Source of the DNA: Nannocystis bainbridge
GTDB lineage: Bacteria > Myxococcota_A > Polyangia > Nannocystales > Nannocystaceae
Direction of reading: 5' to 3'
DNA length: 64,000 nucleotides
Assembly: GCF_028368995.1 (NCBI RefSeq)
Contig: NZ_JAQNDL010000004.1
Coordinates: 64,001-128,000 of the forward strand
The notes under the pieces were generated by a model. That model was not told where the DNA came from, searched no databases, and was given only the letters and a program-made list of their open reading frames with translations. Positions 9,817 to 63,410 of this stretch are shown here, in pieces; the first letter of the stretch is position 1, and each line of letters opens with the position of its first letter. The translations under genes and the position numbers were made by a program.

Positions 9817-9906
9817 ATCGGGCATATCGCCGAGGACATGCCGTCGGGGCATGCTCCTCAGGACATGATGTCGAGGACATGTCGCGCGGGACATGTCCTG
9901 AAAGGA
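9817..9906. repeat. cluster of GGACATGTCC-family palindromic repeat units
   Basis: gaggacatgcc / ggggcatgctcc / aggacatgatgtcgaggacatgtcgcgcgggacatgtcctgaaagg, in the convergent junction between mqnD and the ABC ATPase. Confidence 0.8.
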
Positions 9907-9907
9907 C

Positions 9908-10678
9908 TCAGGGGGCCAGGGCCTCGAAGTAGAGGCGGCCGTCTCGCTCCTGGGCCTGCACGCCGAAGGCCGCGCCGAGGAGCTCGGGGCTGAAGACGTC
10001 GCCGCAGGGGCCGACGCGGGCGCGGCCGGCGGCGAGCAGGATGGCGTCGTCGGCGTGGCGGCGGGCGAGGTCGAGGTCGTGCTCGGCGACGAGCACGGCC
10101 ACGCCCTCGCGCGCGAGGGTCCGCAGGTGGCGGTAGAGGCCGAGCGCGTGGCCGATGTCGAGGCCGGCGGCCGGCTCGTCGAGGATGACCACGGCGGCCT
10201 CGGCGGCGAGCATGCGCGCGAGCATGACGCGCTGGCGCTCGCCGCCGCTGAGCCGGCCGATCGGGCGGTCGGCGAAGGCGGTCAGGCCGAGGCGCGCGAG
10301 CGCGGCGTCGGCGGCGTCGGCGTCGGCGGCGCGCGGCGGACCGAAGCGGGGAAGGTTGGGCAGACGGCCGAGGAGGACGACCTCCCGCACGTGGAGGTCG
10401 AACTCGACGGGGGAGTGCTGCGGCAAATAGGCGAGCCGGCGAGCGCGAGCCGACGGGGCGAGCTCGGCGAGGCGGTCGCCGAGCAGCTCGACGTGGCCGG
10501 CCTGCGGACGGTCGAGGCCGGCGAGGGTGCGCAGCAGGGTCGACTTGCCGGCGCCGTTGGGGCCGGCGACCACGCAGATCCGTCCCCGGCGGAGATCGAG
10601 GTCGAGGGCCTCGTAGAGGACCCGCTCGGCGAGCCGACAGGTCAGGCCGCGAGCGGCGAGGGCGGGCGCCTCGGTCAT
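9908..10678 (-). CDS. ABC transporter ATP-binding protein (FecE/HmuV-like)
   Basis: Walker A GPNGAGKST, signature LSGGERQRV and Walker B ILDEPAAGLD. Start at MTEAPALAARGL, ATG 10678. Confidence 0.8.
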   Translation of the reverse strand: MTEAPALAARGLTCRLAERVLYEALDLDLRRGRICVVAGPNGAGKSTLLRTLAGLDRPQAGHVELLGDRLAELAPSARARRLAYLPQHSPVEFDLHVREVVLLGRLPNLPRFGPPRAADADAADAALARLGLTAFADRPIGRLSGGERQRVMLARMLAAEAAVVILDEPAAGLDIGHALGLYRHLRTLAREGVAVLVAEHDLDLARRHADDAILLAAGRARVGPCGDVFSPELLGAAFGVQAQERDGRLYFEALAP

Positions 10679-15973: not shown

Positions 15974-16052
15974 CGGGCATGTCCAAAGGGGCATGTCCGA
16001 ACAGGAATGTCTGAAGGGGCATGGTCTTCGGGAAATGTCCTGAAGACCATGC
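15974..16052. repeat. tandem array of GGRCATGTCY units, period about 14-15 bp
   Basis: gggcatgtccaaag gggcatgtccgaaca ggaatgtctgaag gggcatggtcttcgg gaaatgtcctgaag, in the convergent junction between the EEP and band-7 genes. Confidence 0.8.
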
Positions 16053-16093
16053 GCGGTGCGGGCAGGCAGGGGCGCCAACCCGCGGGCGACAGG

Positions 16094-20418: not shown

Positions 20419-20457
20419 GGAAGCGCGAGGCGTGAGCGCCTCGTCGGAGCGATCGAA

Positions 20458-20492
20458 GGAGCCGCGACGAGCTCGTCGCGGCTCTTTTGTCG
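20458..20492 (+). terminator. rho-independent terminator
   Basis: Hairpin GGAGCCGCGACGAGC / GCTCGTCGCGGCTC followed by TTTTGTCG, 40 nt after the stop of the 19489-20418 gene. Confidence 0.6.
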
Positions 20493-20573
20493 TGACGCCT
20501 CGTCGGTGAGAGCGCAGGGTCGCGACGAGGAGCACCGCGGATCTCGGAGTGCGTCGCGGGGCGTCGGGATCGA

Positions 20574-28530: not shown

Positions 28531-28672
28531 CGCCAGGACATGTCCTGGCGGTCATGCTGCTTTCGGGCACCGTGTCGCGCGGTCGCCGAGGCGCGCTCGG
28601 CGGCCATGGCTCAAGGGACATGCTCGAACGGGCATGTCCGCTCGGACATGCCCGTGTGGACATGCCTCGAAG
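28531..28672. repeat. cluster of GGACATGTCC-family units
   Basis: ccaggacatgtcctggcggtcatgc ... gggacatgctcgaacgggcatgtccgctcggacatgcccgtgtggacatgcc, in the convergent junction between the PBP and acyl-CoA dehydrogenase genes. Confidence 0.8.
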
Positions 28673-33354: not shown

Positions 33355-34661
33355 TGCGGGTCGCGTTCAGCACGCTCGGCTGCCGCCTCAACCAGTTCGA
33401 GTCCGACGCCCTCGAACAGATGGCCCGCGCGGCCGGCCACACGGTCGTCGACGCCGAGGCCGCGCCCGAGGTCGTGGTCGTCAACACCTGCACGATCACC
33501 CACGAGGCCGACGCCGACGCCCGTCAGCACGTCCGCCGGGCCGCGCGTGCCGGGGCTCGCGTGGTGGTCACCGGTTGCTGGGCGACGGCCGCCCCGGCCG
33601 AGGCGGCGGCGCTGCCCGGAGTGGCGTTGGTGGTCGGCAACCGCGAGAAGGAGCGGCTCTTCGACATGCTCGGAGAGACATGTTCTGAAGAACATGTCCC
33701 GGAGATCCACGTGGCGCCGGTCGACCTGCTGCGGCGGGTCCGCGTGGCCCGGCTGCGCCCGGCCGCCGACCCGCGCCGCAGCCGGGCGTACCTGAAGATC
33801 CAGGACGGCTGCGACTACCGCTGCAGCTTCTGCGTGGTGCCGCAGGTGCGGGGTCGCAGCGCGAGCGTGGCGCCGGACGAGGTGCAGGCGCAGCTGCGGG
33901 AGCTCGTCGCGGCCGGGGTGCCGGAGGTCGTGCTGACCGGGGTGCACCTCGGGATCTACGGCCGCGACCTGCGGCCGCGCGCGACGCTCTCGGGGCTGGT
34001 AGAGGGCCTGCTGCCGCAGCTCGGCGCGGCGCGGCTGCGGCTTGGTTCGGTCGATCCGCACGAGGTCGACGAGCGGTTGATCGCGCTGCTCGCGAGCGAC
34101 CCGCGGCTGTGCCCGTACCTCCACTTGCCGGTGCAGAGCGGCGACGACGACACGCTGCGTCGGATGCGACGGGCGCACACCGCCGCCGACCTGCGGGCGC
34201 TGGTGCCTCGCCTGGCGGTCGCGGTGCCGGGCATCGGCGTGGGCACCGACGTGATCGTCGGCTTCCCCGGCGAGTCGGACGAGGCGTTCGCGGCCACCCA
34301 CGCGCTGCTGGCCGCGCTGCCGCTGGCGTACCTGCACGTGTTCGCTTACTCGCCGCGCGCGGGCACCGATGCGGCCTGTCTCTCGGGACAGATCGATGCG
34401 GCGGTCAAGCAGACGCGGGGTGCGGCGCTGCGGGCCCTGTCGGCGAGCAAGCAGCGGGCGTTCGCGGCCGGGCAGGTCGGTCGCACGCTGGCCGCCGTGA
34501 TCCACCGGACGCGCCACCGCCGGACGGGGCTGCTGGTCGGTCGCGCGGGCAACGGGCTGACGGTGCTGCTGCCGGGCGGCGAGGCGCTGCTGGGCCGGGC
34601 GGTGCACGTCGAGGTCGAGCGCGCCGAGGGGACGCTGGCGGTCGGTCGCGCGGTCGCGTGA
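33354..34661 (+). CDS. mtaB: tRNA methylthiotransferase MtaB-like (MiaB-like radical SAM)
   Basis: MTTase N-terminal domain, radical-SAM CDYRCSFC and a TRAM-like C-terminus. TGATG junction with the kinase gene. Confidence 0.85.
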   Translation: MRVAFSTLGCRLNQFESDALEQMARAAGHTVVDAEAAPEVVVVNTCTITHEADADARQHVRRAARAGARVVVTGCWATAAPAEAAALPGVALVVGNREKERLFDMLGETCSEEHVPEIHVAPVDLLRRVRVARLRPAADPRRSRAYLKIQDGCDYRCSFCVVPQVRGRSASVAPDEVQAQLRELVAAGVPEVVLTGVHLGIYGRDLRPRATLSGLVEGLLPQLGAARLRLGSVDPHEVDERLIALLASDPRLCPYLHLPVQSGDDDTLRRMRRAHTAADLRALVPRLAVAVPGIGVGTDVIVGFPGESDEAFAATHALLAALPLAYLHVFAYSPRAGTDAACLSGQIDAAVKQTRGAALRALSASKQRAFAAGQVGRTLAAVIHRTRHRRTGLLVGRAGNGLTVLLPGGEALLGRAVHVEVERAEGTLAVGRAVA

Positions 34662-34690
34662 GCGTGCGTGGCGCTGATGATCGCGAGCTC

Positions 34691-34806
34691 GCGGTCGCGT
34701 GCGAGCTAGCGAGGCCGCGCGACTCGGCGGTCGCGTGCGAGCTAGCGAGGCCGCGCGACTCGGCGGTCGCGTGCGAGCTAGCGAGGCGACGCGACGCGGT
34801 GGTCGC
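34691..34806. repeat. 38-bp tandem repeat, about 3 copies
   Basis: GGTCGCGTGCGAGCTAGCGAGGCCGCGCGACTCGGC is repeated directly, and the third copy is degenerate. It lies in the convergent intergenic region between mtaB and the MBL gene. Confidence 0.7.
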
Positions 34807-34840
34807 GTCGTCACGAGCCGAGCCGGGGCCAGGCTGGCCG

Positions 34841-39547: not shown

Positions 39548-40279
39548 TCAGGCGCGGGGCGGGCGGGCGCCGAATATGGCGGTGCCGACCCGGACCATCG
39601 TCGCGCCTTCCTCGATCGCGACCTCGAAGTCGGCGCTCATGCCCATCGAGAGGTGGACCAGGTCGACGCCCGGGCGCGCGATCGCGGCTTCACGGCGCGC
39701 CAGCTCGCGCAGGCGGGCGAAGTGGGGCCGGGTCTGCTCCGGATCGCCCTCGGGCGGGATCGCCATCAGGCCGACGCAGCGCAGCTCGGGCCGGGCGGCC
39801 ACCCGATCGAGCAGCGCCGGCAGCTCGCTCGCGGTGACCCCGGCCTTTTGCGCCTCGTCGCCGACGTTGACCTCGACCAGGAGCTCGAGCGGGGTGGTGG
39901 CGCCTCGACCGGCGCGCAGGCGCGCGACCTCGCGGGCGAGCTCGTCGACGAGGGTGGGCCGGTCGACGGTGTGGACCAGGGCGCCGACGCCGACGACCTT
40001 GCGCACCTTGTTGGTCTGCAGCGGGCCGATGAAGTGCCAGCGGGGTGGCGTGACGGCGACGTCGACGACCTCGACCTTGGCCACCAGCTCCTGGGCGTAG
40101 TTCTCGCCGAAGTCGCCCAGGCCGGCGTGGCAGGCCGCGATCACGGCCTCGGGCGGCTGCTTCTTGCTGACGCCGATCAGCGTCGGCACCGGACCGGGGC
40201 CGCGCCGGGCCACGGCGGCGGCGACCCGGGCGCGCACGGCGGCGAGGTTGGCGGCGATGTCGTCTGGCGTCAAGGACAT
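39548..40279 (-). CDS. yggS: YggS family pyridoxal-phosphate homeostasis protein
   Basis: MSLTPDDIAANLAAVRARVA...LIGVSKKQP...GENYAQEL. The start codon is embedded in a repeat unit. Confidence 0.85.
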   Translation of the reverse strand: MSLTPDDIAANLAAVRARVAAAVARRGPGPVPTLIGVSKKQPPEAVIAACHAGLGDFGENYAQELVAKVEVVDVAVTPPRWHFIGPLQTNKVRKVVGVGALVHTVDRPTLVDELAREVARLRAGRGATTPLELLVEVNVGDEAQKAGVTASELPALLDRVAARPELRCVGLMAIPPEGDPEQTRPHFARLRELARREAAIARPGVDLVHLSMGMSADFEVAIEEGATMVRVGTAIFGARPPRA

Positions 40280-40366
40280 GGCGTGAAGGACATGTTGGAA
40301 AGAGAAGGTCGAGAGCGCGGAGCCGCGGGGCGATGTCTCGAAGGACATGGCGCGAGAGACAGGTGA
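40272..40366. repeat. cluster of AAGGACATGGCG units
   Basis: aaggacatggcgtgaaggacatgttggaaag ... tcgaaggacatggcgcgagagacagg, overlapping the yggS start codon. Confidence 0.7.
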
Positions 40367-40371
40367 GTCGG

Positions 40372-41337: not shown

Positions 41338-41460
41338 GCCGGGATGGTAGCACGCGCGGCCGCCAGGCCCGCCGGGGCAGGGATGGGAGCAGCCGGCCGG
41401 AGTGCCGCGGCCGGGCCCGGGCGGGATCGAAGGCGAATGCGGCGGGGGCGTGCGAGCGAG

Positions 41461-41701
41461 GCGAAGCACACGAGGCAGCGGCGGCGTTGGCCGCGACGGG
41501 CGTTCGAGAGTCGGCCGCGAGGCGAAGCACACGAGGCAGCGGCGGCGTTGGCCGCGACGGGCGTTCCTGAGTGGGCGGCGAAGCGAAGCACAGAGGCAGC
41601 GGCGGCGTTGGCCGCGACGGGCGTTCCTGAGTGGGCGGCGAAGCGAAGCACAGAGGCAGCGGCGGCGTTGGACGCGACGGGCGTTCCTGAGTGGGCGGCG
41701 A
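41461..41701. repeat. 60-bp tandem repeat, 4 copies
   Basis: GCGAAGCACA(C)GAGGCAGCGGCGGCGTTGGCCGCGACGGGCGTTCCTGAGTGGGCGGCGAA repeated head-to-tail with period 60-61 and more than 95% identity. It lies in the divergent intergenic region between the 40372-41337 gene and maf. Confidence 0.85.
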
Positions 41702-41823
41702 GGCATGCGAGGTAGCGGAGGTCGCGGGAGGCGGGCGAGCGAGGCGAAGCGCACGGGGCCGGGTTCGGTGCGGGAGGGACGCGAGGTTGCGGGCGCGGCC
41801 GCGATCCGGCAGACAGGCGGACC

Positions 41824-42544: not shown

Positions 42545-42730
42545 CTTCGACCATGTCCAGAAGGACAGCGAGGTCTCCGCGGTCGGCGTACCCGCCGGCT
42601 CGCAAAGTGCTGGCCAAACGGACATGTCCTCACGGACATGTGCGGTTCACGTCGGCGGGCCGAGCTTGTCGCCGACTTCGTACAGGAAATGAGCCGACCG
42701 TGAGGACATGTCCTCGAGGTCAGCCGCGGT
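42545..42730. repeat. GGACATGTCC units interleaved with a 47-bp direct duplication of the adjacent gene's 3' end
   Basis: ccatgtccagaaggacag ... aaacggacatgtcctcacggacatgt-[47-bp copy]-atgagccgaccgtgaggacatgtcctcgaggtcagcc-[47-bp copy, the true CDS end]. Confidence 0.8.
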
Positions 42731-43957
42731 TCACGTCGGCGGGCCGAGCTTGTCGCCGACTTCGCACAGGAAGTGCGAGCTGCTGGCGCCCTTGCCGTTC
42801 ATCGGGAAGGCGAAGTAGCCGGTGAGCACGGGGGGCTGGACGTCCAGCTTCCAGTCGTAGAAGAGCGAGCAGCCAGCGCAGTTGGTGGTGCCGGGCTGAC
42901 CGGCGAAGATCTTGTCGGAGACCCAGTAGGGCTGGTCGAGGTCCGGGTTCGCGGGGTCGGGCTTGAGGGCCCACTGCGGGCAGTCCTCGCTGTTGAGCGG
43001 CTTGCCCACGCAGCTCTGGCCGGGGGTGACGGGGTAGATGCCGAGGATCGAGAGGTAGCCGGCGACGTCGCTGTCGACGTCGAGGTTCGGGGTGTAGTCG
43101 CCGGTGTCGTGGACCGCGCCGAAATCGGTTGCGCTCGCGGCGATGAAGGCGGCCCGCAGGTGCCGGTCGCTGCGCGGCGCGAGCAGCCGCAGGCCCCAGG
43201 TAGCGCACTTCTGCTCGGCCTCGGCCGCGGTGAGCGGCTGGGGCAGGAAGGTGTCGAGGTCGAGCACGGTGCCCGAGGCGTATTTTAGAAAGGAGTAACC
43301 GCCGCCGTCGGCCTCCATGTCGCACCAGGCGGTGAACATCAGGTCTTCGCGGCGGAGGACGTAGAGGCCAGTCGGGACCGCGTCGCCAAACGAGTTCTTG
43401 ATCTCGAGGCACGAGCTGGCGCGGGAGCAGTCGGCGAGGCAGCCGTAGTGCGGGTTGGGGTCGTCGCAGGTCTCGCCCTCGTCGGCCTGGACCATGGAGT
43501 CGCCGCAGCGCGGGGCCCAATCGTCGCAGTAGCGGCCGCACTGGCCGTACTTGCCGTTCTTGTGCTTGCCGTCGTCGCACAGCTCGTCGCCGGCCTTGAT
43601 CAGGCCGTCGCCGCAGACGTTCCAGCGGCAGGCGGAGGTGCACTCGGCGTCGTCGGCGTTGGCCTCGCCCTGATCGCAGAGCTCGGGCGGATCGATCTTG
43701 CCGTTGCCGCACGGGTCGGGCCCGGCGTCGGTGGTCGAGCCGCTGTCACTGTCGCCGTGGCCCGGGTCGACCGTGGTGGTCATGATGCCGGGGTAAGTGG
43801 TCGAGCCGTCGCTGCCGGGGCCGCTGCTGGTCGAGGACGCGGGCAGGGTCGGGTCGTTCTGGCCGGCGTTGCGATCGAGGCAGCCCGCGAGCAGCAGCGC
43901 CAACCCGCAGCGGCCCAAGACTCCGATCTGGACGCGAGGAGAGATGCGTGGGTGCAT
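42731..43957 (-). CDS. secreted lipoprotein with Myxococcus-type Cys-rich repeats and a fibrinogen-like C-terminal domain
   Basis: Lipobox LLAGC. Repeats CGNGKIDPPELCDQG and CGDGLIKAGDELCDDG are TIGR02232-like. The C-terminal LYVLRREDLMFTAWCDMEADGGGYSFL is fibrinogen-related-domain-like. Start ATG 43957. Confidence 0.65.
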   Translation of the reverse strand: MHPRISPRVQIGVLGRCGLALLLAGCLDRNAGQNDPTLPASSTSSGPGSDGSTTYPGIMTTTVDPGHGDSDSGSTTDAGPDPCGNGKIDPPELCDQGEANADDAECTSACRWNVCGDGLIKAGDELCDDGKHKNGKYGQCGRYCDDWAPRCGDSMVQADEGETCDDPNPHYGCLADCSRASSCLEIKNSFGDAVPTGLYVLRREDLMFTAWCDMEADGGGYSFLKYASGTVLDLDTFLPQPLTAAEAEQKCATWGLRLLAPRSDRHLRAAFIAASATDFGAVHDTGDYTPNLDVDSDVAGYLSILGIYPVTPGQSCVGKPLNSEDCPQWALKPDPANPDLDQPYWVSDKIFAGQPGTTNCAGCSLFYDWKLDVQPPVLTGYFAFPMNGKGASSSHFLCEVGDKLGPPT

Positions 43958-44118
43958 GCGGCTCGTCCCGACGCAGGAAGAGAACAATGGGCGCGACCGA
44001 ATTGCAATGCTTGCACACGCAAGCACCGCACGTCGCGGCGCCGCCGGGCTCGGCCGTCAGCAGCCGCGAGGACAAACCCTTGCTGACGAGAGTGCGAGCT
44101 GGCTTACAAAAATTGCAG

Positions 44119-46500: not shown

Positions 46501-47297
46501 GCGCCGGCTCCGAGCGCGCACTGCCAGCCGACCGCGAGGTGCGGCTCGAGGGCGACGCGCGCCGCGGCGCCGGCGGCCAGGGCGTCGAGCAGGGCGATCG
46601 CGGGGGCGCACGGGCTGGCGGCCAGGGCGGCCGGGATGACGCGTGGCCCCGGGGACATGTCGCAGGGGCCATGTTCGAGGCGACATGTCCTCGCGGGCAT
46701 GTCGCTCGGGCCAGCCGCGGACAGGGCGAAGGCGGCGGCGAACGGGTCCCAGCGGCGGCCGGCGGCCAGCGGCTCGGGCAGCGGCTCCTCGGCGATCACG
46801 AGCACGACGTCGCCCTCGCCGGCGGCGACCAGGGCGGCGCACTCGAGCAGGCCCATGGCGAGGGTCGAGGGCCCGGCCGAGATGGCGGCGTTGCCGGCCC
46901 GGTTGCCGGTGGCGATCGAGACGTAGCCGGCGGCCGTGTTGTGGACGCTGTTGTGGAATTTGGTCGGCGACAGCGGCTCGCCGGCGACCAGCAGGGCGGC
47001 GAGCAGGTCGAGGGTGGTCCGGATCTCGCCGTAGACGGAGCCGTAGACGAAGGTGGCGGCGGCGCGATCGAGGCCGCCGTCGTGCAGGGCCTGGGCGGCG
47101 ACCTCGGCGGCCATGCGGGTGAGCAGGCTGGTGCGCCGGCGCATCATCGGCGGCAGCAGCTCGGCTCGGGGGGCGGCGTCGGCGGAGGTGACCTGTCCTT
47201 CGGGACAGGCGTCGGGCCGGGCCCTCCAGGCGGCGACGTCGGGGTAGCCGGGCGACCAGAAGCCGAGGCCGCGGACGGAAAAGGCGAGCGCGCTCAT
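46497..47297 (-). CDS. beta-ketoacyl synthase N-terminal-domain protein (chain-length-factor-like)
   Basis: KS-like fold with no active-site Cys context, 266 aa, translationally coupled to the KS gene. Carries an in-frame repeat-encoded segment, DMPARTCRLEHGPCDMSPG. Confidence 0.65.
   Translation of the reverse strand: MSALAFSVRGLGFWSPGYPDVAAWRARPDACPEGQVTSADAAPRAELLPPMMRRRTSLLTRMAAEVAAQALHDGGLDRAAATFVYGSVYGEIRTTLDLLAALLVAGEPLSPTKFHNSVHNTAAGYVSIATGNRAGNAAISAGPSTLAMGLLECAALVAAGEGDVVLVIAEEPLPEPLAAGRRWDPFAAAFALSAAGPSDMPARTCRLEHGPCDMSPGPRVIPAALAASPCAPAIALLDALAAGAAARVALEPHLAVGWQCALGAGA
46652..46706. repeat. GGACATGTCC-family units inside a CDS, in frame
   Basis: gggacatgtcgcaggggccatgttcgaggcgacatgtcctcgcgggcatgtcgc sits within the CLF-like KS gene. 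Confidence 0.7.
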
Positions 47298-52967: not shown

Positions 52968-53025
52968 CGAGGACATGTCGCATGAGACATGTTCGATAGA
53001 GCATGTTCAATGGGTCATGGGACAG
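52968..53025. repeat. cluster of GRCATGTYC units
   Basis: gaggacatgtcgcatgagacatgttcgatagagcatgttcaatgggtcatgggacag. Confidence 0.75.
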
Positions 53026-53969: not shown

Positions 53970-55583
53970 ATGATCGCGGGCCCGCCCTTGATTGAGCCAG
54001 CGTCCCCGCGGCTGGTGCCGGTGTGGCGCGAGCTGCTGTGTGACGGCATCACCCCCATCGAGGTCTACGCCCGCTTGCGGGCCTACGCGCGCGGCGGCGG
54101 CTCCGGGCCGCCCGACCTGCCGGGCGTAAGCTTCTTGCTCGAGAGCGCGGGCGGGGCCGGCGAGCGGTGGGCCCGCTACAGCGTGGTCGGCGTCGGCGCG
54201 CGGGCCCACGTGCGCGGGGTGTGGAACGGCTACGACCTCGACGTGACGATCACCCCGGGGCCGGGCTTCTCGCTGCCGCCGGGGGTCGAGGCCAAGAGCC
54301 GCGGGCTGGCCGGCATCGCCGCGCTGCAGCGGGCCTACGAGAGCCCGCCGCGGCCCGATCTGCCGCGCTTCTGGGGCGGGCTCGTCGGCGTGTGGGGCCA
54401 CGACGCGGCGCGGGTGTTCGATCCGATCCCGGCCGTACCTGGCCTTTCGGTCATGTCGAGCGATCTGCCGGCGGTCGAGCTGGTGGCGAGCGACACGCTG
54501 GTGGTGTTCGACAACTTCTCCAACCGCGTGCGCGTGCTGGCGACCGCCTGCGCCGACAGCGAGGGCGGGCCGGAGGCGGCCGAGGCGGCGGCGCGGGCCC
54601 GCGTCGACGCGGTCGCGCGGGCGCTGCACGGGCCGACGGTGCTGGGGCCGCGGCGCGTGCCCGAGGTGGCGGCGCCGGCGACCGAGGTGGCGGCGCCGTG
54701 GTCGCGCGAGAAGTACCGCGCCTCGGTGGCGGAGGCGCGCGAGCACATCATGGCCGGCGACATCTTCCAGGTCGTGCTGTCGCAGCGGTTCGTCAGCCGG
54801 CGCGACGGCATCGACCTGCTCGACGTCTACCGCATGCTGCGGGTCGGCAACCCGGCGCCGTACATGTACCTGTTCGACCTGCCGGCCGCGGCGCTGACGG
54901 GCGCGTCGCCGGAGGTGCTGGTCCGCTGCGACCGCGACGCGCTGGCGCCGGCGGTGACGGGGGCGGCGAGCGGCGAGGTGCCGCCGCAATCGGGCCTGCG
55001 CGTGACCGTGCGGCCGATCGCGGGCACGCGCCGGCGCGGCGCCGACGCGATCGAGGACGAGGCGCTGGCCAGCGAGCTGCTCGCCGATCCGAAGGAGCGC
55101 GCCGAGCACCTGATGTTGGTCGACCTCGGGCGCAACGACCTCGGGCGCGTCAGCGTGGCCGGCAGCGTGCGGGTGTCGGAGTCGTTCTCGATCGAGCGCT
55201 ACAGCCGGGTGATGCACATCGTCAGCGAGGTGCAGGGCGAGCTGCGGCCGGAGCTGACGGCGCTCGACGCCCTGCGCGCGACCTTCCCGGCGGGCACGCT
55301 GAGCGGGGCGCCGAAGATCCGCGCGCTGCAGATCATCGACGCGCTCGAGCCGGCGCCGCGCGGCTGGTACGGCGGCGCGGTGGGCTACCTCGGCTACGAC
55401 GGCGGAGCCGACTTCGCCATCTGCATCCGCTCGCTGGTCGCCGTCGGCGAGGAGTTCCGGGTCCAGGCCGGCGCGGGGGTCGTGTACGACTCGTCGCCCG
55501 AGGGCGAGGACAACGAGTGCCACGTCAAGGCGAGCGCGGTGCTGCGCGCGATCGCGGCGGCGGCCGAAGGAGGTGCAGCGTGA
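53970..55583 (+). CDS. trpE: anthranilate synthase component I
   Basis: Chorismate-binding enzyme motifs (LLESAGG, GAVGYLGYDG). Confidence 0.9.
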   Translation: MIAGPPLIEPASPRLVPVWRELLCDGITPIEVYARLRAYARGGGSGPPDLPGVSFLLESAGGAGERWARYSVVGVGARAHVRGVWNGYDLDVTITPGPGFSLPPGVEAKSRGLAGIAALQRAYESPPRPDLPRFWGGLVGVWGHDAARVFDPIPAVPGLSVMSSDLPAVELVASDTLVVFDNFSNRVRVLATACADSEGGPEAAEAAARARVDAVARALHGPTVLGPRRVPEVAAPATEVAAPWSREKYRASVAEAREHIMAGDIFQVVLSQRFVSRRDGIDLLDVYRMLRVGNPAPYMYLFDLPAAALTGASPEVLVRCDRDALAPAVTGAASGEVPPQSGLRVTVRPIAGTRRRGADAIEDEALASELLADPKERAEHLMLVDLGRNDLGRVSVAGSVRVSESFSIERYSRVMHIVSEVQGELRPELTALDALRATFPAGTLSGAPKIRALQIIDALEPAPRGWYGGAVGYLGYDGGADFAICIRSLVAVGEEFRVQAGAGVVYDSSPEGEDNECHVKASAVLRAIAAAAEGGAA

Positions 55584-56290
55584 GCGCGAGCGACAACACC
55601 GCGGGCCCGGCCGTCGACACCGCCGCCCCGCCGCTGCCGGGCGGCCAGCGCCTGCGCCCCGGCGGCGCGGCGCGGCCCGGCTGCCGCGTGCTGGTGATCG
55701 ACAACTACGACTCGTTCACCTTCAACCTGGTGCAGTACCTGCTGCAGCTGGGGGCGGTGGTCGATGTCCACCGCAACGACGCGGTCCAGCTCGAGCAGGT
55801 GCTGGCCGACGCGCCGAGCCACATCGTCCTGTCCCCGGGGCCAGGTACGCCGGCCGACAGCGGGGTGTGCCAGGACCTGTGCCGCCGGCTGGCCGAGGCA
55901 GACGCGCCGGCGATCCCGGTGCTCGGGGTGTGCCTCGGCCACCAGACGATGTGCGAGGTGCTGGGCGCGCGGGTCGAGCGGGCCGGGCGGATCATGCACG
56001 GCAAGCTGTCGCCGATGCTGCACGACGGCACCGGGGTGTTCGCCGGGCTGCCGTCGCCGTTCATGGCCACGCGCTACCACAGCCTGGTCGCGGTCGAGAG
56101 CACGCTGCCGGCCTGCCTGATCCCGAACGCGCGCACCGACGCCGGCGAGCTGATGGGCGTGCGCCACGCGACGCGGCCGATGCACGGGGTCCAGTTCCAC
56201 CCGGAGTCGGTGCTCAGCGAGCACGGTCACGCGATGCTGCGCACCTTCCTCGAGATACATGTCCCATCGAACATGGCGGTAAAGACATGA
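55580..56290 (+). CDS. trpG: anthranilate synthase component II (glutamine amidotransferase)
   Basis: VIDNYDSFTFNLVQYL, GVCLGHQ and HPES. GTG start in a GTGA overlap with trpE, preceded by GAAGGAGG. Confidence 0.9.
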   Translation: MSASDNTAGPAVDTAAPPLPGGQRLRPGGAARPGCRVLVIDNYDSFTFNLVQYLLQLGAVVDVHRNDAVQLEQVLADAPSHIVLSPGPGTPADSGVCQDLCRRLAEADAPAIPVLGVCLGHQTMCEVLGARVERAGRIMHGKLSPMLHDGTGVFAGLPSPFMATRYHSLVAVESTLPACLIPNARTDAGELMGVRHATRPMHGVQFHPESVLSEHGHAMLRTFLEIHVPSNMAVKT

Positions 56291-57354
56291 CCGAAGGGGC
56301 AGGGGCAGGGGCGCTGCGGCGCGGGCTGGGCCGCCTGACCCGCGGCGAGGCGCTGGACGAGGCCGAGGCGCTGGCGATCTTCCGCGAGATCGTGGCCGGC
56401 GCGGCCGACCCGGCGCAGATCGGCGGGCTGCTGGTCGGACTGGCGATCCGCGGCGAGACGGCGGCGGTGATCGCGGGCGCGGTGCGGGCGATGCGAGAGG
56501 CGGTGGTGCCGGTGCCGCTGCGCGAGGCCGGGGCGATCGACACCTGCGGGACCGGCGGCAGCGGGGTGGCCCGGCGCAACGTGTCGACGGCGGTGGCGAT
56601 CGCGGCGGCGGCGTGCGGGGTCCGGGTGGCCAAGCACGGCAACCGCGGGATCTCGAGCCCGTGCGGCTCGGCGGACGTGCTGGCGGCGCTCGGCGTCGAC
56701 ATCACGGCCCCGCCCGAGCGCGTCGGCCGGTGCGTCGACGAGGTCGGCGTCGGCTTCATGTTCGCGCCGAACCTGCACCCGGCGATGCGCCACGCGGCCG
56801 GCCCGCGCAAGGCGCTCGGGCTGCGCACGCTGTTCAACCTGGTCGGGCCGATGTGCAACCCGGCGGGGGTGCGCCGGCAGGTGATCGGCGTGTTCGACCC
56901 GGGCAAGGTCGAGGCGATGGCGGCGGCCCTGGGCGCCCTCGGCAGCGAGCGGGTGTTCGTGGTCCACGGCCGGTTCGGGGGCGCGGACCGGCCCGGGATC
57001 GACGACCTCAGCCCCGAGGGCCCGAGCACGATCGCCGAGTGGCACCGCGGCGCGCTGCGCACGTACACGCTGCGCCCGGCCGACGCCGGACTGCCGGAGG
57101 TGCCGATCGCGGCGATCGCCGGCGACGACGCGGCCGGCAACGCGAGCGCGCTGCGGGCCCTGCTGGCCGGCGAGCCGGGGGCCTACCACACAAGTGTGCA
57201 GTACAGCGGCGCGCTGGCCCTGCTGGCGGCCGGGGACGACGATATCTCGACGCTGCCGGCCAAGGCGGGGGCGATCGGCGCGGCGCTCGAAGACGGGCGG
57301 GCCGCGGCGGTGCTCGACCGACTCGTCGCCGCCAGCCGCGCTGCGCTACCCTGA
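56287..57354 (+). CDS. trpD: anthranilate phosphoribosyltransferase
   Basis: DTCGTGG and NLVGPMCNPAG. ATGA overlap with trpG. Confidence 0.9.
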   Translation: MTEGAGAGALRRGLGRLTRGEALDEAEALAIFREIVAGAADPAQIGGLLVGLAIRGETAAVIAGAVRAMREAVVPVPLREAGAIDTCGTGGSGVARRNVSTAVAIAAAACGVRVAKHGNRGISSPCGSADVLAALGVDITAPPERVGRCVDEVGVGFMFAPNLHPAMRHAAGPRKALGLRTLFNLVGPMCNPAGVRRQVIGVFDPGKVEAMAAALGALGSERVFVVHGRFGGADRPGIDDLSPEGPSTIAEWHRGALRTYTLRPADAGLPEVPIAAIAGDDAAGNASALRALLAGEPGAYHTSVQYSGALALLAAGDDDISTLPAKAGAIGAALEDGRAAAVLDRLVAASRAALP

Positions 57355-57362
57355 GGCAGGTC

Positions 57363-58169
57363 ATGAGCGACAAAGGCAGCACGTACCTCGACAAGATCCT
57401 GGCCGCCAAGCGGGCCGAGCTCGCCGCCCCCCGGGCGACCCGCTCGGGGGCGCTGACCGACCGCGAGCTGCTCGAGCTCGGGGCCCGGCTGCCGCGCCCG
57501 CGCGACTTCATCGGCGCGCTGCGCGAGGGCCCGCGACCGGGCATCATCGCCGAGTTCAAGCGCGCGTCGCCGAGCGCGGGGGCGCTGCGCGAGGGCGCCG
57601 ACGCGCGCCAGATCGCGATGCTCTACGCGGCGGGCGGCGCGGCGTGCATGAGCGTGCTGACCGACAAGCACTTCCAGGGCTCGCTCGACGATCTCCGGTC
57701 GGTGCGCCAGAGCGTGTCGCTGCCGCTGCTGTGCAAGGACTTCATCCTCGAGAAGACGCAGATCGTCGAGGCCAAGCGGGTCGGGGCCGACTGCGTGCTG
57801 CTGATCGTGGCCGCCCTGCCGGTGCCGCAGCTGCGCCAGCTGATCGAGTTCGCCCACACGCTCGAGCTGCAGGTGCTGTGCGAGACCCGCGACGAGGCGG
57901 AGATCGATCGCGCGATGGCGGCCGGGGCCAAGCTGATCGGGGTCAACTCGCGCGACCTGCAGACGTTCGAGCTCGACCCGGACCGCGCGGCCAAGCTGCG
58001 CAAGTACGTGCCCAAGAGCTTCACGTACGTGGCCGAGAGCGGGGTGCGCAGCATCGACGACGCGCTCCGCCTGCGCGACTCGGGCGCCGACGCGCTGCTG
58101 ATCGGCAGCTACTTCATGACAGCCGAGGAGCCCGGCGAGGCGCTGCGCGAGCTGGTGATGGCGCTGTGA
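57363..58169 (+). CDS. trpC: indole-3-glycerol phosphate synthase
   Basis: IIAEFKRASPS and GINSRDL. Confidence 0.9.
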   Translation: MSDKGSTYLDKILAAKRAELAAPRATRSGALTDRELLELGARLPRPRDFIGALREGPRPGIIAEFKRASPSAGALREGADARQIAMLYAAGGAACMSVLTDKHFQGSLDDLRSVRQSVSLPLLCKDFILEKTQIVEAKRVGADCVLLIVAALPVPQLRQLIEFAHTLELQVLCETRDEAEIDRAMAAGAKLIGVNSRDLQTFELDPDRAAKLRKYVPKSFTYVAESGVRSIDDALRLRDSGADALLIGSYFMTAEEPGEALRELVMAL

Positions 58170-58233
58170 GGCTGGCGCTGGGGACATGTTCGCAAGGACA
58201 GGCCCTGCGGGACAGGTCGGTGCCGGCGTGGCG

Positions 58234-58860
58234 GTGAAGCTCAAGGTGTGCGGGGTGACCCGCGCCGAGGACCTGGCCGCCTGCGTCGAGCTGGGGGTCG
58301 ACGCGGTCGGGATCAACCTGTGGAGTGGGTCGCGCCGCGGGCTGACGCTGGCCGAGGCGCAGGCGCTGCTGCAGGCGGTCGATCCGCCGCGCTCGCTCGA
58401 GCGGGTCGGGGTGTTCGTCGAGCCGACCGCGGAGGAGGTGCGCCGCGCGGCCGAGACGCTGGCGCTCGACCTCGTGCAGATCGTCGGAGCGCAGGAGGTC
58501 GCAGGCTTCGGGCTGCCGTACCTGTGGGTGGTCCGCGGGACGCCAGCGCTGGCAGAGCTGCTGCCGCCGTCACCAGGCCCGGCGCGGGCGCTGCTCGACG
58601 CCGCGGTGCCGGGGTACGGGGGCGCGGGCCAGACGACCGACTGGGGCTGGGCCGCGGCGGCGGTGCAGCAACTGGCAGGGCTCGAGGTGTGGCTAGCGGG
58701 CGGGATCACGGCCGAGAACGCGGCGCAGGCGATCGCGCAGGTCCGCCCGGCGGGGCTCGATGTGGCCAGCGGGACGGAGCTGCCAGGAGCCCGCCGCGGT
58801 GAGAAGGACCGCGTCGCCATCGCGGCGCTGCTGGCAGCCTGTCGCGGCGAGACGGGCTGA
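58234..58860 (+). CDS. trpF: phosphoribosylanthranilate isomerase
   Basis: VKLKVCGVT...DAVGINL. Start is uncertain: GTG 58234, GTG 58228 or ATG 58186. The upstream ATG lies in a repeat cluster. Confidence 0.75.
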   Translation: MKLKVCGVTRAEDLAACVELGVDAVGINLWSGSRRGLTLAEAQALLQAVDPPRSLERVGVFVEPTAEEVRRAAETLALDLVQIVGAQEVAGFGLPYLWVVRGTPALAELLPPSPGPARALLDAAVPGYGGAGQTTDWGWAAAAVQQLAGLEVWLAGGITAENAAQAIAQVRPAGLDVASGTELPGARRGEKDRVAIAALLAACRGETG

Positions 58861-58865
58861 GCGCT

Positions 58866-58990
58866 GGACATTCTTTAAAAAGGGGCATGCCCGAAAGGGA
58901 ATGTCTGAATGAGCATGTCTGAAAGGGAATGTCTGAAAGGGCATGTCTGAAAGGGCATGCTCGTCTGCACATGTCCGGATGGGCATGAGG
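58866..58990. repeat. tandem array of GGRATGTCTGAAAG units, 14-bp period, 6-7 units
   Basis: ggggcatgcccgaaag ggaatgtctgaatg agcatgtctgaaag ggaatgtctgaaag ggcatgtctgaaag ggcatgctcgtctgcacatgtccggatgggcatgagg, located after trpF. Confidence 0.85.
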
Positions 58991-59243
58991 TTTGAACTGG
59001 GCGAGGGTCGGTCGTGGCGCGAGGCGAGTGGCGAGGTGCGATCGCGCGATGTGAACCACGAGCGAGGCGCCGAGTGCCGAGCGCCGAGGTGCGGTCGCGC
59101 GACATGAGCGGCGCGGGCGAGCGAAGGAGCCGCGAGCGAGGGGCGGGCTGCCGTTGTTCGAGGCGCCACGAGTCGATTGCAGGCGCGCTCGGCGGTCTGG
59201 GCCGCGCGAGACGGGCGGCGGGGGCTCGGGCTATGATCGGCGG

Positions 59244-60479
59244 GTGACGAGCTTCTCGCGACCGATCGCGGCGGCGGCTCCGTGGGCGGAGTCGATGTTC
59301 TCGTTCGGGGTCACCGGCACCAACGGCAAGACCTCGACGACGTGGATGATCGCGGCGGCGGTGCGCGCGGCCGGGCTGTCGGTGCTGCGGGTGTCGACGC
59401 TCGGGGTGGCGTTCGACGACGAGGCGTGGCCGCGCGGCAAGCGGTTCGCCGACTTCGTCGCCACGCTCGAGCGGGCGGCCGCGCGCGGGGCGAGGCACGC
59501 GGCGATCGAGACGACCAGCCACGCGCTGGCGCAGGGCTACGCACGCAGCTGGCGGTTCGACCTCGGGGTGTTCACCAACCTGTCGGTCGACCATTTCGGC
59601 ACGCACGGCAGCTGGGAGCACTATCTGGCGGCCAAGGCCCAGCTGTTCATGCACCTGGGCCCGGGGCACACGGCCGTGCTCAACGCGGCCGACAAGCACG
59701 CGCTGTTCATCGACCAGGCGATCCCCGCCGATGTCGAGCGACGGTGGTTCGCGGCGCCGGGCCGCGGGCCGCGGCTGCGCGCGGCGGACCTCGAGGCGGA
59801 GGCGATCGAGGTCGGGCCGACGGGGACGCGGGTGACGCTGCGGCCGTCGCCCGTGGCGGCGGCGCTCGGCGGGCAGCTGACGACGCGCATGGTCGGCGAG
59901 GTGTTCGCCGAGAACGCGCTGGCGGCAGCGCTCGCGGGGCTGTCGGCGGGGCTGCCGGGCGAAGCGGTGGCGCGCGGGATCGCGGCGTGCCCGGTGGTGC
60001 CGGGAAGGTTCGAGGTGCTGGCGCATGGCGAGGGCCGGCCGACGATCGCCGTCGACTACGCGCACTCGCCCGACGCGCTGACGCATACGTGCGCGACGGC
60101 GCGGCGGCTGGCAGGGCCGCAGGGGCGCGTGCTGGTGGTGTTCGGCGCCGGCGGCAACGCGACGCCGGAGAAGCGCGCGCCGATGGGCGCTGCCGTGGCC
60201 GCGCTGGCCGACGTGGCAGTGGTGACGAGCGACAACCCGCGCGACGAGGCGCCGGAGGCGATCGCGGCGGCGGTGGTGGAAGGCTTGCGCGGGGGCCGAG
60301 CGACGTGGACGACGGAGCTCGATCGCGGGCGGGCGATCGCGGCGGCGATCGCCGGGGCGCGGGCGGGCGACGTGGTGGTGATCGCCGGCAAGGGACACGA
60401 GGAGGGGCAGACGGCCGGCGGACAGACGCGGCCGTTCTCCGACGTGGCCGAGGTGCGGCGGCTCGTCGGCGACGCGTAG
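59244..60479 (+). CDS. Mur ligase family protein (MurE-like, lacking N-terminal domain)
   Basis: GVTGTNGKTSTT P-loop within 25 aa of the start, then DVAVVTSDNPRDE and VIAGKGHEEGQ, typical of MurE/MurF. Start at GTG 59244 or ATG 59295. Confidence 0.65.
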   Translation: MTSFSRPIAAAAPWAESMFSFGVTGTNGKTSTTWMIAAAVRAAGLSVLRVSTLGVAFDDEAWPRGKRFADFVATLERAAARGARHAAIETTSHALAQGYARSWRFDLGVFTNLSVDHFGTHGSWEHYLAAKAQLFMHLGPGHTAVLNAADKHALFIDQAIPADVERRWFAAPGRGPRLRAADLEAEAIEVGPTGTRVTLRPSPVAAALGGQLTTRMVGEVFAENALAAALAGLSAGLPGEAVARGIAACPVVPGRFEVLAHGEGRPTIAVDYAHSPDALTHTCATARRLAGPQGRVLVVFGAGGNATPEKRAPMGAAVAALADVAVVTSDNPRDEAPEAIAAAVVEGLRGGRATWTTELDRGRAIAAAIAGARAGDVVVIAGKGHEEGQTAGGQTRPFSDVAEVRRLVGDA

Positions 60480-60619
60480 AGCCCAGGGCCGCGGTGGCAG
60501 GGTGAGCGGAGGCGGCGGGACGCGAGCGGCACGGATGGGGCAGGTCCCCGGCACTGGTGACGCGGAGGACGCCGGCGGGCGACAGGCGCAGGGCTGCGGA
60601 ACAGATCGGACCGGCCGCG

Positions 60620-60716
60620 CGGGACATTTTCGAGAGGACATGTCCGCGAACTAGTCATAAAGGACATGCTCGAGAGGACATGCTTTTACGAGCATGTCCT
60701 CTCGAGCATGTCCGAA
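60620..60716. repeat. GGACATGTCC-family cluster containing a 16-bp-stem perfect hairpin
   Basis: gggacattttcgagaggacatgtccgcg ... ctcgagaggacatgc-ttttac-gagcatgtcctctcgag-catgtccgaaactg, in the convergent junction between the Mur ligase and the LDLa lipoprotein genes. Confidence 0.8.
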
Positions 60717-60728
60717 ACTGAAAAGAGG

Positions 60729-61346
60729 TCAGCAGTCGAGCTCGTCGGAGCCGTCGGGGCAGTCCGGGGCCATGTCGCACTTCCAGGACGCCTGGATCTC
60801 GGTGCCGTCGGTGCAGGTGAAGGCCTCGAGGCCGCAGCCGGTGACCTCGTCGGAGCCGTCGGCGCAGTCGGGGACCTCGTCACAGGCCCACGCCTCGGGG
60901 ATCTCCTTCTTGTTGTCGCCGGTGCAGGTGAAGGCCGCGAGGCCGCAGCCGCTGACCTCGTCGGAGGCGTCGGGGCAGTCGGGGTTCTCGTCGCAGACCC
61001 AGGCGGGGTTCTCGAGCAGGGTGCCGTCGCTGCAGACGAAGCCCTCGCCAGTGGTGCCGGCGGTCGCGTCGGTGGAGGAGTCGGTCGCCTCGCTGGTGCT
61101 GGTCGGCGCGTCGGTGGTGGTCGGCGCGCTGGTGCCCGAGTCCGTGCCGGTCGAGTCGTCCGTATCGGCGCTGGTGCCGGTGGTCGCTTCGTCGGTGGTG
61201 CCGGAGGTGCTCGTGGTCGTGCTGGTCTGCGGGCCGATGTTGGTATCGGTGAATCCGTCACCGAGGTTGATCGTGCACCCGGCTGTCGCGAGGCCCTGGC
61301 TCATGAGGGCGGCGACGGACAAAAATTTGGCGAGGTCGATGTTCAT
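60729..61346 (-). CDS. lipoprotein with three LDL-receptor class A-like repeats
   Basis: Lipobox ATAGC, a Thr/Ser-rich linker, then three copies of C.DG..I...W.CD...DC.DGSDE..C. Confidence 0.65.
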   Translation of the reverse strand: MNIDLAKFLSVAALMSQGLATAGCTINLGDGFTDTNIGPQTSTTTSTSGTTDEATTGTSADTDDSTGTDSGTSAPTTTDAPTSTSEATDSSTDATAGTTGEGFVCSDGTLLENPAWVCDENPDCPDASDEVSGCGLAAFTCTGDNKKEIPEAWACDEVPDCADGSDEVTGCGLEAFTCTDGTEIQASWKCDMAPDCPDGSDELDC

Positions 61347-61424
61347 CGTGGCGGGGAATGTGCCACGGGCCGGCGCGCAGGGGCGCGCGCGGCCCACGAG
61401 CACACGCCCGCACGCGCGCGCGAT

Positions 61425-61925
61425 TCAGGCCGGTACGAGGCGGACGGTGACCTCTGCGCTCGGATCGAACGGCGAGCCCTTGACGTCGGCGATGCACTTG
61501 ACGACGAGCCGCACGCCCGGGTCGCGCGTGGCAGCGTTGGGGTCGGGGAAGCCGTTGCTCGCGAGGATCTTGGCGAGGTCGACGTCGCTCACCAGCCACG
61601 GCTGGGTGATGACCTGGCCAGGCTTGAGGTCGCACGGCATCTTGAGGCAGCCGTCCGAGTAGCTGACCTTCGGATCGGGATCCTTCTCGGCGACGGCGAG
61701 GAAGGGCGACTCGACGTCGTCCTTCTTGATGTACAGCCACACCTCGTATTTGGTCGCCAGCAGGGTGCAGTCCTGCTGGGCGGTGATCACCATCGTGCCC
61801 TTGAGCACCGAGTCGGTGACCGGGAAGGTGGCGGTCGCCGCGGGTTGACGCTCGATGACGGTGATGGCGACGCTCGCCATGTTCTTGCCGCCGAGGAACT
61901 GCTTGGCCTTGTCGAAGAATCCCAT
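61425..61925 (-). CDS. hypothetical protein
   Basis: Starts MGFFDKAKQFLGG. Lower GC than its surroundings. No confident domain. Confidence 0.45.
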   Translation of the reverse strand: MGFFDKAKQFLGGKNMASVAITVIERQPAATATFPVTDSVLKGTMVITAQQDCTLLATKYEVWLYIKKDDVESPFLAVAEKDPDPKVSYSDGCLKMPCDLKPGQVITQPWLVSDVDLAKILASNGFPDPNAATRDPGVRLVVKCIADVKGSPFDPSAEVTVRLVPA

Positions 61926-63140: not shown

Positions 63141-63410
63141 CGGATGGAAGGACGACCGCGCAGGTGCGGGCGTCGCAGGTTGCTGACGAGGCGAGGATGA
63201 CGACGGCCGCGTAGGGGCGGACGTCGCGGGTTGATTTGAGTCGTGGATGACGACGGCCGCGTAAGTGCGGAAGTCGTAGCGGGGACGGCCGCGAAGTCGC
63301 GGACGCCTGGTGCTGTCAGAAGGGTGGACGACGACGGCCGCGCAGGTGCGGCTGTCGCGGGATGCTATGGGCCGCGCACGACCGCGAAGTTGCGGCGCGT
63401 CGGCGGGGAA
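63141..63410. repeat. imperfect about 52-bp tandem repeat, 4-5 copies
   Basis: Unit GGATGACGACGGCCGCGTAGGTGCGG..GTCGCGGGTTG recurs at about 63141, 63193, 63244 and 63322, with a degenerate copy near 63376. It lies between the AKR start and the TetR stop. Confidence 0.6.

Follow-up and report, generated by a model that had tools for sequence, protein, structure and literature searches.

The tandem array of 14-bp units that lies directly behind trpF in Nannocystis bainbridge belongs to a dispersed, genus-wide family of repeats and is not specific to the trp genes, a conclusion that we regard as secure. The array is located in a 64,000-bp stretch of contig NZ_JAQNDL010000004.1 (assembly GCF_028368995.1, positions 64,001 to 128,000), referred to below as the window, in whose coordinates all positions are given; its G+C content is 71.8%. 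The family is built on a palindromic core, GGRCATGYCC, and is very abundant in Nannocystis and apparently undescribed. Once the family is recognised, the trp-linked array is ordinary, and it is the family itself that is striking, for a 14-bp phase that is kept while the spacers are unrelated. As to its role, we give about even chances to the reading that the trpF array is a gene-end element similar to the repetitive extragenic palindromic (REP) sequences and bacterial interspersed mosaic elements (BIMEs) of other bacteria, acting through stem-loops in the transcript together with a sequence-specific partner protein.

The trpF array and the 14-bp repeat family

With a score of 112, 5.5 copies and 84% matches, the array that Tandem Repeats Finder located at 58883-58959 is the top-scoring one of period 14 in the whole window, and the first-pass annotation, made from the sequence alone, had rightly called it the most ordered copy there. 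Reading the sequence in register gave eight in-phase 14-bp units at 58883-58994, namely GGGCATGCCCGAAA at 58883, GGGAATGTCTGAAT at 58897, GAGCATGTCTGAAA at 58911, GGGAATGTCTGAAA at 58925, GGGCATGTCTGAAA at 58939, GGGCATGCTCGTCT at 58953, GCACATGTCCGGAT at 58967 and GGGCATGAGGTTTG at 58981. The head-to-tail arrangement and the 14-bp phase described earlier, for six to seven units, are real, but the unit sequence given at that time had dropped one base; the correct consensus is GGG(C/A)ATGTCTGAAA. Each unit is composed of the core GGRCATGYCC and a 4-nt spacer, mostly GAAA (direct-repeat family D1), and the centre is CATG in six of the eight units and AATG in the other two. With up to three mismatches allowed, the 14-mer of the trpF array was found 13 times against 2.1 expected, and none of 100 shuffles equalled that number.

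The array is preceded at 58866-58882 by a degenerate leading unit, TGGACATTCTTTAA at 58866, and an A/T-rich run, TGGACATTCTTTAAAAAG; this segment pairs with the unit at 58897 in the minimum-free-energy structure of the + strand RNA. The sequence directly after the array, GAGGTTTGAAC, is not a T-run. A/T-rich runs, which are unusual at 72% G+C, often flank arrays of the family, as at 58874-58882 (TTTAAAAAG). No match on the array was obtained from Rfam, either at the gathering threshold over the whole window or in a permissive search of 58700-59400, and none from a blastn search of a plasmid collection with the trpF array or from a scan of viral contigs for three phased strict units. A promoter scan of 58000-61500 gave no promoter-like site.

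A second set of direct repeats had been reported beyond the array and is also real, in the form of two 37-nt copies at 59018-59054 and 59071-59107 that are 78% identical and 53 bp apart. It sits in a G+C-rich spacer, and its 22-nt core occurs twice against 0.07 expected. The two repeats had been presented as linked, which was not supported, since alignment found the 53-bp-period repeat (59018-59107) in the window only and missing from the orthologous spacers of two Nannocystis pusilla loci, L001 and L002. It is treated here as a local duplication separate from the 14-bp family.

The properties of the unit across the family were obtained from a logo of 305 units, in which G G R C A T G Y C C precedes four variable positions with a slight A/T bias. 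Within noise, the two halves of the core mirror each other in base frequency, the central CATG is best conserved, and no family-wide strand polarity is present. Chains of at least three CATG in 410 kb of Nannocystis DNA number 74 at a period of 14 versus 0-1 at each other period from 8 to 21. The centres of good units are 14 bp apart in 181 cases, 13 bp in five, 12 bp in one and 15 bp in none, with further peaks at 28 bp (112), 42 bp (75) and 56 bp (20), and only 11 in-phase units inside arrays do not have CATG. As for the sequence between cores, 223 of 231 inter-core 10-mers are distinct. The identity of neighbouring spacers is 0.34 versus 0.27 for random pairs, and in the typical array the median is 0.45 for neighbours versus 0.41 for random pairs, meaning that its spacers are unrelated.

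Arrays hold two to eight head-to-tail units, and a few of them are internally homogeneous, namely the trpF array, its L001 orthologue and the arrays in loci L041 and L066. From their sequences, these look like recent amplifications of a single unit, and the high order of the trpF array would come from its youth and would not be typical of the family. At the edges of 81 arrays (from the window and loci L001-L109), the first unit beyond the array tended to retain only its array-facing half-site, which reads ..CCTGYCC at the left edge and GGRCAGG.. at the right edge.

Phased 14-bp arrays are present at about ten further places in the window, and the earlier assignment of the trpF array to a repeat family that also occurs at 15974-16052 was correct. 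To define the wider distribution, one genome per species (185,579 species) was scanned for four GRRCATG at 14-bp intervals. The matches listed comprise at least 108 stretches, and at least 41 of these, all with variable spacers, come from six Nannocystis genomes: N. exedens DSM 71, N. pusilla Na p29, N. punicea FL3, N. radixulma, Nannocystis sp. RBIL2 and one metagenome-assembled genome. Among the matches listed, those from outside Nannocystis are all perfect 7-mer (GGGCATG)n or perfect 14-mer satellites and were rejected as unrelated, the (GGGCATG)n satellites being mostly from cyanobacteria and Bacteroidota. The cyanobacterial heptamers, which are similar to short tandemly repeated repetitive (STRR) sequences, do fit GRRCATG at 14-bp intervals, but as perfect 7- or 14-bp satellites they have 'spacers' that are identical, and the genomes that carry them have 35-55% G+C.

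Five outgroup loci of 19-21 kb each, lying around the same Mur-ligase gene that follows trpF in the window (62-79% protein identity), were taken from Nannocystaceae strain ST9 and four other Nannocystaceae or Myxococcota assemblies. These five loci contain no arrays and only 0-2 copies of the 10-mer each. Period-15 CATG chains in the outgroup loci were considered as a shifted version of the family and were found to be coding sequence with codon periodicity. The 8-mers ACATGTCC and AGGACATG are the top 8-mers in the window and in the two N. pusilla loci, with an over-representation of about 30-fold, and this enrichment was seen in none of the outgroup loci. Extrapolation from 13 arrays of at least three units in 106 kb of unselected sequence would give in the order of a thousand arrays per Nannocystis genome of 11-13 Mb. 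No description of a phased GGRCATGYCC family was found in the literature searched, where GGACATGTCC turns up only in papers on p53. The core matches the p53 half-site consensus RRRCWWGYYY, which is why the string is confined to the p53 literature; the match is probably a coincidence.

Gene ends, orthologous gaps and the trp genes

The positions of the arrays relative to genes were determined with genes called by third-position G+C. There are 39 arrays in convergent gaps, 44 in tandem gaps and 7 in divergent gaps, against baseline numbers of 48, 108 and 41 gaps, respectively, and only the ratios between gap types are informative because the loci were partly chosen for having an array. Most array edges fall within 0-30 bp of a stop codon, with 6 bp as the commonest distance, and in tandem gaps the array is nearer the stop of the upstream gene in 31 of 44 cases. 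The window itself is sequence unselected by the genome scan, and here units are found in all five convergent gaps, in 0-1 of five divergent gaps and in about four of 19 tandem gaps, with a unit density of 4.2 per kb in gaps versus 0.5 per kb elsewhere. The genes that precede arrays are mutually unrelated (ABC ATPase, exo/endonuclease-phosphatase, acyl-CoA dehydrogenase, Maf, Ser/Thr kinase, TrpF and Mur ligase).

Pfam assigned trpE (53970-55583), trpG (55517-56290), trpD (56287-57354), trpC (57363-58169) and trpF (58186-58860, + strand; PRAI, E = 3e-24), the last gene of trpE-G-D-C-F, with its stop codon TGA at 58858-58860. The start ATG of trpF at 58186 falls within a GGACATG unit (58182-58188). 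The following gene on the + strand, at 59244-60479, belongs to the Mur-ligase family (Pfam Mur_ligase_M and Mur_ligase_C), and its GTG start at 59244 was set by alignment with the N. pusilla orthologue in L001. The gap between trpF and the Mur-ligase gene measures 383 bp (58861-59243), in agreement with the earlier placement of the array in a gap of about 380 bp after trpEGDCF. The absence of trpB and trpA from the window, also stated earlier, was borne out: no match to the TrpB/TrpA Pfam families was found among the roughly 50 called genes, and a scan of the six-frame translation of the window with TrpB/TrpA signature patterns found none. What did not hold was the expectation of trpBA at this place, because the order trpE-G-D-C-F and then the Mur-ligase gene is common to two N. 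pusilla genomes (L001 and L002), with the array between trpF and the Mur-ligase gene. The order is ancestral in Nannocystis and nothing is missing at the spot; trpB and trpA would be expected at another place in the genome, as in N. pusilla. The Mur-ligase protein is 89% identical to the N. pusilla orthologue P0001, and MtaB is 92% identical to that of N. punicea, identities that place the DNA in Nannocystis.

These data bear on the idea of a trp-specific element, whether an attenuator, an array for binding a TRAP-like protein or a remnant of trpBA loss. The only observations that would suggest one are that the array follows trpF and that the window has neither trpB nor trpA. A TRAP site lies in the trp leader and consists of 9-11 (G/U)AG triplets at intervals of 2-3 nt, whereas the array is located downstream of the operon and has a period of 14 nt, and Rfam gave no match. 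The same family lies behind ABC ATPase, kinase, acyl-CoA dehydrogenase, Maf and other genes unrelated to trp, which undoes the tie to the trp operon that had been drawn, and N. pusilla has the array within the same trpF to Mur-ligase order. A trp-specific element is hardly credible in view of these results.

In the window, L001 and L002, arrays are present in the same gaps, namely behind the kinase gene, behind trpF and between the Mur-ligase gene and the next gene, and gaps that are empty in one of the three are empty in all. The first-pass annotation had counted absence from closely related strains among its grounds for refutation; the array is present in both relatives examined. The trpF arrays of the three genomes align in register, the only invariant columns being G-CATG-T, and they contain 8 units in the window, 4-6 in L001 and 2-4 in L002. 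The proteins of the compared genomes are only 85-89% identical. From trpF to the Mur-ligase gene, the distance is 383, 182 and 57 bp, respectively, so indels are frequent in this intergenic DNA. Because indels are common in the gap and adjacent units nevertheless nearly never lose their 14-bp phase, we infer from the alignments that core and phase are under purifying selection, whereas whole units are gained and lost. In L002, the 57-bp gap (9946-10003 of that locus) is filled by four units, the last of which overlaps the GTG start, and the two genes are therefore either co-transcribed there or served by a promoter within trpF.

The same comparison was used to weigh a selfish or neutral minisatellite, which would grow by slippage in 14-bp steps and survive where it is harmless, behind stop codons and away from promoters, without any function for the cell. 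The trpF array and a few others (L041, L066, L001) are homogeneous and look recently amplified, the number of units differs between species by whole units, adjacent spacers are slightly more alike than random pairs, and a duplication of 84 bp (6 x 14) is present at 42620/42704. High-identity copies in varying number, as in slippage minisatellites or variable-number tandem repeats, are indeed found (84% matches; 8, 4-6 and 2-4 units), but the whole-unit similarity, spacers included, of such repeats is restricted to the trpF array and a few others and is not a property of the typical array. Most arrays keep core and phase with unrelated spacers, which needs purifying selection or a sequence-specific process, and slippage by itself does not account for one unit being present at many hundreds of distinct places. 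The occupation of the same gaps in three genomes at this protein divergence and the maintenance of the family in six species also speak against it, and a selfish or neutral repeat is considered unlikely.

Predicted transcript stem-loops and postulated DNA-binding partners

The reverse complement of a unit is approximately the unit itself, which allows any unit to pair with its neighbour; two neighbouring units are predicted to form a 24-nt hairpin with a 10-bp stem and a 4-nt loop. The + strand RNA of 58861-59000 was predicted to fold into three stem-loops at -53.4 kcal/mol (z = -4.6), while the z-score of the - strand is -0.44; the asymmetry arises because the units GGGCAUGUCU pair via G-U wobbles, which are A-C mismatches on the other strand. 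The orthologous trpF arrays are likewise more stable on the sense strand (-29.4 vs -16.0 and -12.6 vs -6.2 kcal/mol). In the 80 nt past the stop codon, the mean z-score is -3.4 with an array and -1.0 without one, and that of divergent 5' regions is -0.2; by these folding predictions, gene-end hairpins seem to be general here, with the arrays as the strongest ones. Spacers two positions apart, the pair that borders a two-unit hairpin, are complementary at 1.39 of 4 bases versus 1.08-1.18 (p < 0.0005, tested against global and within-array shuffles), and adjacent spacers are complementary less often than chance. This pattern is what two-unit hairpins with extended stems would give.

Cooperative protein binding and a structured RNA, the two mechanisms suggested in the first-pass annotation, are both still live after the analysis. 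In the favoured reading, that of a REP/BIME-like gene-end element, the structure of the transcript would be what matters, by stabilising or insulating it, and a partner protein would exist. Upon transcription of the trp operon, each unit would pair with the neighbouring unit to give 10-bp stems with 4-nt loops, and the 3' end of the trp mRNA would thereby carry a stack of three strong stem-loops. These stem-loops may mark and protect the transcript end and hinder read-through into the next transcription unit, and between convergent genes they would have this effect in both directions. A sequence-specific factor, probably dimeric, would also read the units; such a reader is implied by the constancy of core and 14-bp phase at loci whose spacers are unrelated.

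In E. coli, REP/BIME elements stabilise upstream mRNA and bind gyrase, IHF and Pol I. The elements grouped as REP, BIME and REPIN are repeats of Enterobacteria and Pseudomonas (Bertels & Rainey 2011, PMC3116915; PMC3337134). The Nannocystis family is similar to them in its short palindromic units, high copy number and almost wholly extragenic location, and in forming regular arrays behind stop codons and between convergent genes (PMC3116915, PMC3337134). It also shares vertical inheritance within a lineage and stem-loops in the transcript, which are here predicted, and the clustering at extragenic 3' ends that is typical of REP/BIME/REPIN is seen in its unit density, its occupation of convergent gaps and the position of array edges. 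The basic unit of REP/BIME/REPIN is an imperfect palindrome of about 20-40 nt that forms a stem-loop. The Nannocystis unit is a 10-bp dyad, a pair of which would form the 24-nt hairpin; the spacer complementarity favours such pairs, but core covariation is weak. Unlike theirs, this unit of 10 bp + 4 is its own inverse, and a tandem array is for that reason also an alternating array. REP/BIME/REPIN copies are near-identical as a whole, but the Nannocystis copies share only core and phase, which argues against copy-and-paste from a master sequence, and some Nannocystis arrays lie inside coding sequences. Those elements have a cognate REP-associated tyrosine transposase (RAYT, a Y1 transposase), whose gene is typically flanked by the repeats, and a GTAG-type motif; the Nannocystis family has no known counterpart of either. 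No transposase domain was found among the roughly 50 called genes of the window, and our literature search found no paper linking RAYTs to Myxococcota.

Several results weigh against a role exerted through transcript stem-loops. The variable core positions of adjacent units show no covariation beyond the consensus (z at most 1.5), the family-wide preference for the sense strand is weak (27 vs 18 arrays, p = 0.08), and the G-U versus A-C counts give a weak, non-significant sense-strand trend. The spacers have no tetraloop preference (GNRA/UNCG, 16 observed vs 12 expected), and two arrays are located inside coding sequences, those of mtaB and a chain-length-factor gene. In L002, the array fills the 57-bp gap and abuts the start codon of the Mur-ligase gene, so an efficient terminator is impossible at that place. 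With a U-tract defined as at least 4 T in 6 bases, none of 28 sense-side flanks has one after the array (5 of 78 convergent flanks do), and the arrays are therefore not canonical intrinsic terminators. Finally, a hairpin alone explains neither the identical core everywhere nor the near-absence of 13- and 15-bp spacings. The hairpin is not the whole story, because hairpins need neither one set sequence nor a loop of exactly four bases.

The flanks also bear on an ordinary Rho-independent (intrinsic) terminator of the trp operon. The G+C-rich stem-loops directly after the last gene are those of such a terminator, and 60665-60710 on the - strand matches a scan for a hairpin plus T-run, as the sole such site in 58000-61500. 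However, the U-tract expected 3' of the hairpin is lacking, as no T-run follows the trpF array or any of the 28 arrays in tandem context; ordinary terminators share neither one core nor one phase genome-wide, and the L002 array runs up to the next start codon. Like bidirectional intrinsic terminators, the arrays place a symmetric hairpin, able to act on both strands, between convergent genes. Those terminators have flanking A-/U-tracts and sequences that are unrelated from locus to locus, in contrast to the Nannocystis arrays, with one core, one phase and no U-tract. The ordinary terminator is very unlikely on this evidence.

Alternatively, the array may act as double-stranded DNA. Dimers would occupy the 10-bp dyads, cooperatively at 14-bp intervals, and the resulting filament behind genes would form a roadblock or insulator that separates transcription units, or else a topological or nucleoid anchor, with RNA folding as a by-product of the palindromes. 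Gyrase and IHF bind BIMEs, which offers a comparison for such an anchor, and ribbon-helix-helix proteins read the centre of a palindrome. The mirror-symmetric logo with CATG as its best conserved part fits this proposal, as do the strict phase (181 distances of 14 bp vs 6 off-phase) despite near-random spacers and the variation of the gap length among species (383/182/57 bp), which means that indels are excluded only within arrays. The lack of inter-unit covariation, the lack of strand polarity in the family as a whole, the occurrence of arrays inside coding sequences and the half-sites retained at array edges are in line with it as well. On the other hand, a site read purely by protein would not be expected to have complementary spacers two positions apart, and both orthologues repeat the strong bias of the trpF array towards the sense strand. 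The binding protein is purely postulated, the sites are at 3' ends and not at promoters and so do not indicate an ordinary transcription factor, and a roadblock would be awkward in the 57-bp gap of L002. A filament on DNA is thus a possible but tentative explanation.

The closest parallels for DNA binding are the MetJ metboxes, omega heptads and ParR/ParG repeats, which also have a centre-conserved dyad repeated two to eight times head to tail at a rigid period. In arrays of the MetJ/omega/ParR type, compact ribbon-helix-helix dimers bind cooperatively, and neighbours are expected to touch. By analogy, a centre-conserved 10-bp palindrome at a rigid period may indicate cooperatively binding compact dimers, and dyad units at such a period are what the Nannocystis arrays contain. 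The overlap with promoters and the known repressor of MetJ/omega-type systems are missing, as the Nannocystis arrays avoid divergent gaps and adjoin stop codons. Arrays of the MetJ/omega/ParR type are located at promoters or plasmid centromeres, with few per genome, versus many hundreds of loci here; their period is 7-11 bp versus 14 bp, and the Nannocystis binding protein is hypothetical.

A more specific proposal, which we offer as speculative and rather doubtful, is that a dedicated Nannocystis protein polymerises on the phased GGRCATGYCC dyads and forms a protein-based, orientation-independent gene-end system. If so, the polymerising protein would be a roadblock terminator, an insulator or a supercoil barrier between convergent genes, and the system would replace or supplement hairpin terminators at 72% G+C, a type of genome punctuation undescribed in bacteria.

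Resemblance to uptake sequences was also considered. The DNA uptake sequences (DUS) of Neisseria and the uptake signal sequences (USS) of Haemophilus are, like the Nannocystis core, words of 10-12 bp that are hugely enriched in one lineage, and they are often paired into terminator-like hairpins behind genes. They differ in being asymmetric words, present singly or as inverted pairs, with many in genes and no phased tandem arrays. The GTCTGAA of the trpF array resembles the Neisseria DUS, and this resemblance is not part of the family consensus.

The ending and insulation of transcription units in very G+C-rich bacteria, where U-tract terminators are scarce, are poorly understood, and in Nannocystis a large part of the gene ends is marked by one palindromic word in rigid phase. 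The combined presence of a conserved core and a near-inviolable 14-bp phase between unrelated spacers predicts a specific reader protein. Should the arrays turn out to block or insulate transcription bidirectionally, they would offer small, transferable boundary elements for the engineering of myxobacteria, an important source of natural products. Even if they are REP-like passengers, they mimic regulatory arrays beside operons and matter for annotation. They are also ready-made loci for strain typing, because the number of units differs between close relatives.

Other arrays and neighbouring features in the window

Most other arrays of the window are at or near stop codons. Those at 9820-9903 and 40274-40367 are directly behind the stop codons of - strand genes, an ABC ATPase gene in the first case and a gene with its stop codon at 40372 in the second. 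The array at 15975-16058 is in a convergent gap, 8 bp past a stop codon (Tandem Repeats Finder period 14, score 63), and that at 52971-53020 is 15 bp past the stop of the Ser/Thr kinase gene. Four units at 28616-28672 lie 6 bp from the stop of a - strand acyl-CoA dehydrogenase gene, with two further units nearby at 28536-28559. Another array, at 60622-60717, occupies the convergent gap between the Mur-ligase gene and a gene with LDL-receptor class A repeats, and it includes an inverted repeat with a 20-bp stem at 60665-60710. This repeat and the one at 28630-28653 are long perfect inverted repeats made of family units, a feature in favour of folding. Single units are found at 20703, 28536, 34844 and 50642.

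The family units at 42620-42717 are in the convergent gap between the Maf gene and a DUF4215 gene, within an 84-bp (6 x 14) tandem duplication at 42620-42775 whose copies, at 42620 and 42704, are 89% identical. The duplicated segment takes in one unit and the final ~45 nt of the DUF4215 gene (42731-43987, - strand), which suggests unequal recombination between units.

The two arrays within coding sequences comprise three phased units at 33662-33704 in mtaB and four at 46653-46708 in the ketosynthase chain-length-factor gene. As 14 is not divisible by 3, the pattern DM..TC..EH is encoded in both. In-frame insertion, as in the Rickettsia palindromic elements, was considered for them and rejected; the orthologues of both genes are nearly equal in length, and the arrays are therefore not simple insertions.

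Single GGACATG units also stand at start codons (58182-58188, 23795, 4450 and 8494), where the ATG of the unit is the start codon. Other G+C-rich intergenic tandem repeats are located at 41456-41704 (60 bp x 4.1, 95%), 34682-34808 (36 bp x 3.5, 93%), 20431-20544 (59 bp x 1.9) and 63151-63276 (50 bp x 2.5), and the 36-bp repeat array at 34682-34808 adjoins a family unit in a convergent gap. The gene with LDL-receptor class A repeats (60729-61403, - strand; Pfam PF00057, E = 2e-23) contains 111-bp coding repeats at 60741-61017. Its domain is of a eukaryote type, here carried by a myxobacterium, and homologues of the gene occupy the same place in N. pusilla.

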